A DNA stretch of 52,116 nt from a virus. This document shows, in pieces, positions 6,725 through 6,838 of this stretch (positions are counted from its first letter, which is position 1; each line of letters starts with the position of its first letter). The notes below the pieces were generated by a model. It was not told the origin of the DNA. It ran no database searches and worked only from the letters and a program-made list of their open reading frames with translations. The DNA lies in IMG/VR virus record IMGVR_UViG_3300006141_000023; one strand, written 5' to 3'. Position numbers and translations under genes: made by a program.

Positions 6725-6838
6725 TGTTGAAATGTGGAGTTATTTTCTCTGAATTTTGCGCCTGTGGGCTTTCATGCTTGTTGGTGGGCGGTTGTTCCAC
6801 CCAGAGCGAAACGAGCGAACAGCGCGGCTTACACGGGG
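6725..6838 (-). promoter_or_regulatory. conserved ~110-nt leader element, copy a (upstream of terL)
   Basis: Minus sense: GCGCUGU-UCGCUCGUUUCGCUCUGGGUGGAACAACCGCCCACC...ACAGGCGCAAAAUUC-N-AAAAUAACUCC-N12-AUG. Confidence 0.6.

Follow-up and report, generated by a model that had tools for sequence, protein, structure and literature searches.

The ERIC and Correia/NEMIS elements of Enterobacteria and Neisseria are imperfect palindromes of 100-150 bp that lie in operons, show presence/absence polymorphism and are co-transcribed as long RNA hairpins, some of which alter mRNA stability or are cut by RNase III. They are chromosomal repeats whose terminal inverted repeats are conserved, and their tens to hundreds of copies face either way. 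The PeSL cassettes of T4-type phages combine a stem-loop with a recognisable sigma-70 early promoter at gene borders and are associated with modular shuffling, and the nut sites of lambda and put sites of HK022 are small, cis-acting structured phage RNAs located just downstream of early promoters, two per genome. The early polycistronic precursor of T7 contains five RNase III processing signals (Dunn & Studier 1983, PMC3867540). A survey of candidate structured RNAs in IMG/VR includes, in the part of its catalogue considered here, 14 candidates that lie consistently upstream of large-terminase genes and 6 that do so for RusA genes, given without name or function (Fremin et al. 2023, PMC10690425).

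Here we describe a hairpin element of approximately 102 nt that occurs exactly four times (copies a to d), always on the minus strand, in a viral contig of 52,116 nt (the whole stretch of DNA analysed, henceforth the window), and which we rate as belonging with the repeated intercistronic hairpin elements of phage operons. Its closest anatomical analogue appears to be the set of T7 RNase III signals, since in both cases one long phage transcript carries between its cistrons a set of irregular hairpins, related to one another, facing the same way and some two helical turns long, each just before the initiation region of the next gene. Specifically, the predicted fold resembles a T7-type RNase III stem in being a helix of at least some 20 bp, broken by internal loops or bulges, within a transcribed spacer between cistrons, counting 10-15 long-range plus inner and apical pairs in the window and the long-range helices of relatives, which are mostly predicted at 16-28 bp with bulges. 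By contrast, the element has no sequence homology to the T7 signals, has a Bacteroidales host, is longer (~100 nt), may be present or absent at any given junction, and has two further parts, a single-stranded tail that is invariant and an apical A-rich loop that is conserved; cleavage is here only proposed. As in ERIC and Correia/NEMIS, it is an imperfect palindrome between operon genes with presence/absence polymorphism, but its arms are the most variable part, its orientation follows the genes and it is confined to one phage lineage. It shares with PeSL the form of a short repeated cassette at phage gene borders but carries no host-type promoter (TAnnTTTG) inside, and shares with nut and put a phage RNA structure with phage-specific loops but is larger and sits deep inside operons, and no N-like protein was found in the window.

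The element is common in the same contig collection that underlies the 2023 catalogue, whose unnamed terminase- and RusA-upstream candidates, to judge from the part considered here, may include it (PMC10690425). We scanned the whole window at the Rfam 15 gathering thresholds and found only c4-2, a tRNA and RT-17, all elsewhere than the copies, while E-value scans of copies d and c returned only noise (E of at least 0.96). A known RNA family was accordingly set aside, with no Rfam match at any threshold tried. The preliminary description of this DNA had proposed a phage-specific, structured and orientation-specific cis-element, a proposal that our analysis supports: the element is real, unnamed and family-wide among the relatives of this Bacteroidales phage.

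The phage and its four copies

The window holds an integrase and an HTH lysogeny cluster together with packaging, tail and lysis genes (Table 1), and its gene content therefore indicates a temperate siphovirus. Homologues of its portal occur in prophages of Muribaculaceae, Porphyromonadaceae, Barnesiella, Prevotella, Alloprevotella and Phocaeicola coprocola DSM 17136, with 98% identity to the portal of a Porphyromonadaceae prophage (UMGS216), which therefore points to a Bacteroidales bacterium as host. A search for a close annotated relative among GenBank phages found none. Nearly all genes of the window are carried by the minus strand. The 921-aa head protein with its PF03496 domain may possibly be a host-modifying enzyme that is injected. 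PHROGs labels phrog_645, the family matched by the gene in the terS position, as 'Rnase E', which is probably a misnomer for the small terminase subunit.

Table 1. Genes, promoters and element copies of the window (numbering of the whole stretch; stems and apical hairpins of the copies are predicted).
Feature	Position	Strand	Remarks
Head protein, 921 aa, head-morphogenesis position	724-3489	minus	C-terminal ADP-ribosyltransferase exoenzyme domain (PF03496, E 1e-16)
SPP1-type portal	3731-5131	minus	
terL	5153-6724	minus	tblastn to phage terminases, <30% identity
Copy a	6738..6839	minus	between terS-like gene (6829-7407) and terL (5153-6724); 30.8 bits
Copy a, stem	5' strand 6825-6814, 3' strand 6770-6758	minus	10 long-range pairs
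Copy a, apical hairpin	6803-6785	minus	GGTGGAACAA at 6801-6792
Copy a, invariant tail	6746-6738	minus	AAAAUAACU; AUG at 6724
terS-position gene	6829-7407	minus	matches phrog_645, E 2e-20
Probable middle/late promoter	8835-8874	minus	TAACTTTG box
ECF-sigma-like protein (predicted), 172 aa	20373-20891	minus	family without Pfam assignment
Early leftward promoter	22820-22850		TTTG-N19-TAACTTTG
HTH gene cluster, lysogeny	22838-24642	plus	
Copy b	23814..23917	minus	spacer between plus-strand signal-peptide moron (23378-23815) and HTH gene 2 (23921-24400); 43.9 bits
Copy b, stem	23905-23888 with 23846-23832	minus	15 pairs
Copy b, apical hairpin	23879-23855	minus	
Copy b, tail	23822-23814	minus	
Tyrosine integrase (int)	24656-25831		
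int promoter	26166-26197		
Probable middle/late promoter	27932-27971	minus	TAACTTTG box
Fibre/host-range-like protein, 1687 aa (tail-fibre-like)	27980-33043	minus	
Copy c	33056..33157	minus	between phrog_11557 gene (33167-33565) and 1687-aa tail-fibre-like gene (27980-33043); 73 bits
Copy c, stem	33149-33135 with 33090-33074	minus	15 pairs
Copy c, apical hairpin	33125-33100	minus	
Copy c, tail	33064-33056	minus	AUG 33043
Tape measure	39145-44211	minus	
Copy d	46656..46757	minus	between head-module gene (46757-47119) and phrog_5377 gene (46208-46648); 69.2 bits
Copy d, stem	46747-46733 with 46687-46673	minus	13 pairs
Copy d, apical hairpin	46721-46698	minus	
Copy d, tail	46664-46656	minus	AUG 46648
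Probable middle/late promoter	49881-49922	minus	TAACTTTG box
Replication genes			primase-helicase, helicase, YqaJ exonuclease
Amidase			tail/lysis group

Several other features of the window were recorded. A tRNA-Gly(CCC) gene lies within the tail module (44972-45046, minus). A DGR-type reverse transcriptase gene (PF00078) adjoins an RT-17 RNA (RF03020) at 33552-34722 on the minus strand, the RNA scoring at threshold (40.4 bits), and a search of 27900-35400 found no template/variable repeat pair of at least 40 nt. At 690-714, where the minus-strand packaging operon adjoins a plus-strand gene cluster, a perfect 10-bp hairpin with A and T runs on its sides (AAAAGAGGGC-TTCGC-GCCCTCTTTT) resembles a terminator that works in both directions. 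Finally, the early operon includes a c4-2 antisense RNA gene (RF02944, 56.8 bits; 16996-17076, minus), and minus-sense RNA contains a perfect 12-nt complement to it at ~24431-24443, between int and copy b, and a perfect 11-nt complement at ~8217-8227, inside the methylase gene. The element was rejected as a target of this RNA: only copy d has a 9-nt complement, and the best complements lie elsewhere.

The preliminary description had reported four minus-strand segments of common architecture, and these are confirmed at the positions given there, as the only copies in the window. We built a covariance model from the orthologues of copy c and ran it with filters off across the whole window; after the four copies (scores in Table 1) the next match reached 17.8 bits and was the antisense of copy d. 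An nhmmer profile of the 3' 66 nt of the element likewise matched these four positions only. The tail motif AAAATAACT occurs exactly on the minus strand only at the four copies, the motif GGTGGAACAA has 10 matches in the window at no more than one mismatch (2.6 expected), and the gap between the two is exactly 45 nt in all four. The tail is followed by an AUG after 13 nt in copy a, 18 in b, 12 in c and 7 in d. The order of blocks is as first described, with small deviations: copy a has GCUGUUCGC in place of GUGUCGC, copy b has GGCGAUUUUUG in place of GCGCAAAUUC, copy c carries GAGUGGAACAA, and UUUCGG is exact in copies c and d only. The arms differ among the copies (GCGCUGU, UUGCCGCGUG, UGCGCCCCUG and UUGCCCUGUG), and the centre and tail are conserved.

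The copies are spaced 9-17 kb apart around the genome and sit at module borders (early/packaging, head/tail, tail/fibre and immunity). Copies a and c directly precede terL and a 1687-aa fibre-like gene, as had been reported; the gene behind copy d, previously taken for a gp10-like gene, belongs to phrog_5377, a PHROG of unknown function.

Distribution and conservation in relatives

An exact-pattern scan of IMG/VR returned five true homologues. We gathered relatives (L numbers below) as orthologues of the flanking genes and searched them for the element with an HMM. Matches were found at 56 of 80 loci at the d junction, 32 of 80 terL loci, 10 of 18 c-junction loci and 16 of 35 prophage loci in Bacteroidales genomes, and diverged copies of the element are thus common but facultative at the syntenic junctions of related viral contigs and prophages. 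In element-free relatives, the upstream stop codon overlaps the downstream start codon (ATGA, TGATATG). The orientation of the element follows local gene direction in the a, c and d types, and when a gene cluster is oppositely oriented in relatives, its element copy is inverted as well.

We aligned 78 distinct copies (39 clusters below 70% identity) on the anchor AAATAAC. The 3' 66 nt of this alignment are gap-free across all clades, and the conserved blocks are a central A-rich motif (ATAAAAC-type), GAAA before the 3' arm, AATT and AAAATAAC, while the arms are the least conserved part. The motif GGGUGGAACAA is present in the window copies but restricted to the clade of this phage; other clades have an ATAAAAC-type dyad centre. 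The first ATG lies 0-21 nt past the tail in nearly all copies (0-2 nt in 13 of 89 distinct copies), so that the tail falls within the translation-initiation region. A hidden small ORF in the element was rejected, since copies of the a, c and d types conserve neither a start codon nor a reading frame.

The sole copy type that is read as protein is the one before the phrog_503 gene. In four relatives (L178 at 4432-4827, L181, L192 and L204), element-scoring sequence (29-33 bits) overlaps the start of this gene; the ATG falls within the apical region, and translation of the 3' arm and tail yields a conserved basic N-terminus. The orthologue in the window (8865-9269, minus) retains the peptide without the nucleotide motif. 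The element and the 5' end of the phrog_503 gene have a common ancestry.

This distribution also bears on a rather unlikely explanation at the DNA level, namely that the element is a recombination linker or a formerly mobile cassette of the PeSL, ERIC or Correia kind, which marks module boundaries and fosters mosaic exchange, its palindromy being a legacy of origin and not a functional RNA fold. Such a cassette would account for presence/absence polymorphism precisely between stop and start at syntenic junctions, for the coincidence of the copies with module borders and for the conversion of element-like sequence into an N-terminal coding region. Copying or gene conversion is suggested by the window copies, which are more alike than orthologues elsewhere (they have GGGTGGAACAA four times at the dyad centre, a motif confined to the clade of this phage), and the pairing described below is strand-symmetric. 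However, the arms are not only least conserved but vary from copy to copy in a single genome, the reverse of what holds for terminal inverted repeats that a transposase recognises, and no target-site duplication was seen when filled and empty sites were compared; on these two grounds a MITE of the Correia/ERIC type was rejected. Nor would a cassette explain the strict co-orientation with genes, the conserved tail beside the ATG, or the double substitutions by which orthologues retain complementarity, which require selection on pairing.

Folding and selection on pairing

All four copies share one minimum-energy architecture, in which a long-range stem of 10-15 bp encloses an apical hairpin. Folding z-scores were -5.94 for c, -2.27 for d, -0.87 for a and -0.91 for b, so that a and b, taken singly, fold no better than shuffled sequences. 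In a 4x4 arm-swap matrix the cognate arm was the best partner in every copy except a.

We then considered homologues. For the c junction, RNAalifold on a plain MAFFT alignment of 12 orthologues predicts an 11-bp stem in which 86.4% of cells are paired (68.1 +/- 2.5 in shuffled alignments, 0/500 as high; 33-50% in slid controls) and 9 of the 11 pairs show double changes (4.6 +/- 1.2 shuffled). Across 67 sequences of all types, in an alignment made with the model and hence fitted to the structure, 76.1% of cells are paired (60.4 +/- 1.3 shuffled; 31-44% in slid controls), with 124 double-change cells against 57 +/- 5.5. We also carried out an alignment-free swap test with 38 cluster representatives, in which cognate arms paired at -19.5 kcal/mol and permuted partners at -16.9 +/- 0.6 kcal/mol, none of 20000 permutations being as low as the cognate set; a shuffled-arm control was null, while a reversed-arm control retained a smaller effect (p ~0.003). 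Individual compensatory changes include G-C to U-A (L014 vs. L021 and L179) and C-G to U-A (copy c of the window vs. L215). Compensatory substitution of the kind expected of a structured cis-regulatory RNA was therefore found with the MAFFT alignment, the model alignment and the swap test, and the covariation anticipated in the preliminary description is borne out once homologues are added. In the anchored alignment, canonical pairs and runs of pairs peak at diagonals i+j = 109-111, which places the dyad axis (column 55) on the central A-rich motif.

Other comparisons run counter to this. RNAalifold came up empty on two further MAFFT alignments, one of the window clade and one of 28 d-junction orthologues, and in the ungapped anchored alignment no column pair rose above ~0.7, in both cases because the register of the 5' arm shifts by 1-3 nt. 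Within close clades, variation was 0.129 at paired and 0.142 at unpaired positions, i.e., not depleted in stems, and single changes comprised 17 disruptive and 10 wobble-compatible ones. We consider it probable that selection maintains the complementarity of the arms, and conclude that the fold is loose, a generic long hairpin and not an intricate tertiary structure.

Three tests for a strand bias of the pairing showed none: duplex fits contained 31 G-U pairs in the sense and 41 in the antisense direction, the mean folding z was -1.68 for sense and -1.59 for antisense, and the model-fitted alignment held 48 G-U against 32 A-C pairs (p=0.09). It is therefore from orientation only that we infer a sense-strand RNA.

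The predicted folds also allow a second, rather improbable reading to be assessed, in which the element is an intra-operon attenuator. Here, transcription of the distal terL, tail and fibre genes would be reduced by a leaky intrinsic terminator made up of a 5' GC hairpin and a U-rich run, copy b would block read-through from int into the immunity region, and the rest of the element would restore translation. Leftward read-through from int could reach copy b because no strong terminator lies between. In many relatives (L072, L135, L168, L180, L183, L186 and L206) the 5' arm alone forms a GC hairpin followed by UUUUCUUUU; the 3'-side A-run and hairpin read in mirror image as a terminator of the other strand, as after the moron at copy b in the plus-strand fold; and a position after genes that are needed in larger amounts would suit the tuning of stoichiometry. 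A compact GC hairpin with a U-run, as in an intrinsic terminator, is however formed by the 5' arm only in some relatives. The window copies have only GUUUCG or CUUUCG after weak local stems of 3-5 bp, a terminator scan reported nothing at copies a and b, and several clades lack any U-run (L046, L059, L082 and L104). In addition, thermodynamics favours the long stem (14.6 expected long-range pairs against ~2 local ones), which is followed by AAAUUC and not by U's. A subset of copies, notably the inverted-cluster ones, favours two local GC hairpins over the long stem.

Transcription context and proposed function

Bacteroidetes-type -7 boxes (TAACTTTG) lie on the minus strand near 8835, 27932 and 49881, and the palindrome GTGATTATAAT-N-TAATCA(C) stands before each of them. 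From their sequence, these three sites are probably co-regulated middle/late promoters with a common operator. They head the operons methylase-terS-copy a-terL-portal, lysis, and head-copy d-tail-DGR-copy c-fibre, respectively, with copies a, d and c lying 2.0 kb, 3.1 kb and 16.8 kb inside their operons. The preliminary description had noted that no TAnnTTTG, the -7 box that goes with a -33 TTTG in Bacteroidetes sigma-A promoters, lies within the element, which holds in all four copies. It had also suggested a promoter-leader role, which is unlikely for a, c and d in the sense of a primary promoter; primary late promoters were rejected at these three copies, as the TAACTTTG promoters stand upstream of their operons.

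It had further named the protein at 20373-20891 as sigma-like, and this is corroborated. The 172-aa product has a predicted two-domain, ECF-like sigma fold with SigL, SigH, SigE and SigW as best Foldseek matches (probability 0.8-0.97); its C-terminal domain superposes on the -35-binding domain of SigD with a TM score of ~0.7-0.78, its profile matches SigH (E 5e-4), and Sigma70_r4_2 was detected in 13 of 36 homologues. On the strength of profile and structure-model comparisons, the protein appears to be ECF-sigma-like.

The element could thus be an internal, late promoter for this sigma factor, with GGAAC/ATAAAAC as -35 box, a -10 box ~16 nt downstream, the 3' arm and tail as 5' UTR and, at copy b, an antisense or read-in transcript across the immunity region. 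We regard this as unlikely. GGAAC, GTAAC and TAAAC look like ECF -35 boxes, and the AAC-type motif conserved at the dyad centre could be such a box for the phage's own two-domain factor. The gap-free 3' 66 nt and the exact 45-nt spacing of the window copies resemble the geometry of a protein footprint, and the pairing is strand-symmetric. By contrast, a, c and d lie in operons already served by TAACTTTG promoters, and the position 16-17 nt downstream of AAC, where an ECF promoter would have a CGT-like -10, is variable (CGAC/GACG in about half of the window-clade copies, other sequence elsewhere), leaving the apical GGAAC without a conserved -10. The best-conserved block, AAAATAAC, is no -10 box, and the tail AAAATAACT was rejected as a -10 or -7 box because the ATG can directly abut it and it does not fit TAnnTTTG. 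The covariation of the arms is also left unexplained.

Copy b suits a promoter better than an RNA module. It is antisense to both neighbouring genes, has no co-directional gene upstream, and neither in the window nor in relatives does a conserved ORF follow its tail. The AUG after b in the window is not conserved in relatives, and b leads no conserved gene. In the window and its close relatives (L001, L009 and L223-L227), copy b separates HTH gene 2 from a variable moron on the plus strand, starting ~18 nt from the start codon of HTH gene 2; its type is restricted to the close clade, with HMM matches at 4 of 23 HTH-2 loci.

Highly improbable in our view is an RNA bound by a protein or by RNA polymerase, i.e., put- or nut-like processive antitermination, or the operator of a phage RNA-binding protein, reloaded every 9-17 kb. 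The regular spacing of the copies in an almost wholly one-directional genome, and the constant length from loop to tail, are in its favour. The boxA/boxB arrangement is a two-part antitermination design, and a tail common to all clades with a clade-specific apical loop recalls it. Against it, no candidate antiterminator protein was found among the genes of the window, the elements are not just downstream of the promoters near 8835, 27932 and 49881, each junction lacks the element in many relatives, which makes it dispensable, and the fold is heterogeneous (long stem or two hairpins).

For a repeated, conserved and facultative element with covarying arms inside operons, we tentatively favour, with a probability of roughly 35% and by analogy with the T7 signals, an intercistronic RNA hairpin that, together with an unpaired A-rich leader, would serve to process or stabilise mRNA and to uncouple translation. 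The element would be transcribed within long phage operons and act in cis as an intercistronic module of three parts: an imperfect hairpin of ~85-95 nt (a GC-rich stem, a U-rich/A-rich inner stem and, at the apex, a small hairpin whose A-rich loop lies on the dyad centre); directly 3' of it the invariant, presumably unpaired AAAUUCG-N3-AAAAUAAC(U); and, 0-21 nt beyond this tail, the start codon of the next gene. The hairpin would be a substrate of or barrier to RNA turnover, through RNase III-type cleavage of double-stranded RNA, protection from exonucleases, or both. In that case, the upstream message would end in a stable hairpin and the downstream message would gain a defined A-rich 5' leader free of structure, open to independent initiation by Bacteroidetes ribosomes, which are not reliant on Shine-Dalgarno pairing. 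The module would therefore replace the translational coupling that stop/start overlap gives in element-free relatives, and the phage would set the expression of terL, the tail module and the fibre apart from that of upstream genes. We infer action as a sense-strand RNA, processing and the effect on translation alike. Against this reading count the strand symmetry of the pairing, the antisense position of copy b, the undiminished variation of stems in close clades, the copies that favour two local hairpins, the alignments on which RNAalifold came up empty, and a tail-to-ATG distance that varies.

Improbable, too, is that the element is a new functional class of phage RNA, with a core (the A-rich loop and, at constant spacing, the AAAUUCG-N3-AAAAUAAC tail) that would itself engage the expression machinery directly. 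Such a core might provide self-cleaving or otherwise protein-independent processing before key genes, put-like resistance to termination, or ribosome loading independent of Shine-Dalgarno pairing.

The commonest prophages of human and animal guts include temperate siphoviruses of Bacteroidales, and to our knowledge almost nothing is known about their late-gene control. In front of terL, the tail module and the host-range fibre, the element provides this lineage with a signal that is frequent, conserved and unnamed, and it is a natural test case for translation restart that does not use Shine-Dalgarno pairing. Should it prove to be a sigma-dependent promoter, the copies would mark out the regulon of a new family of ECF-like sigma factors in phages. 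If it sets module expression or mRNA stability, it would offer a first handle on post-transcriptional control in Bacteroidetes phages, as well as a portable intercistronic part for Bacteroides engineering.
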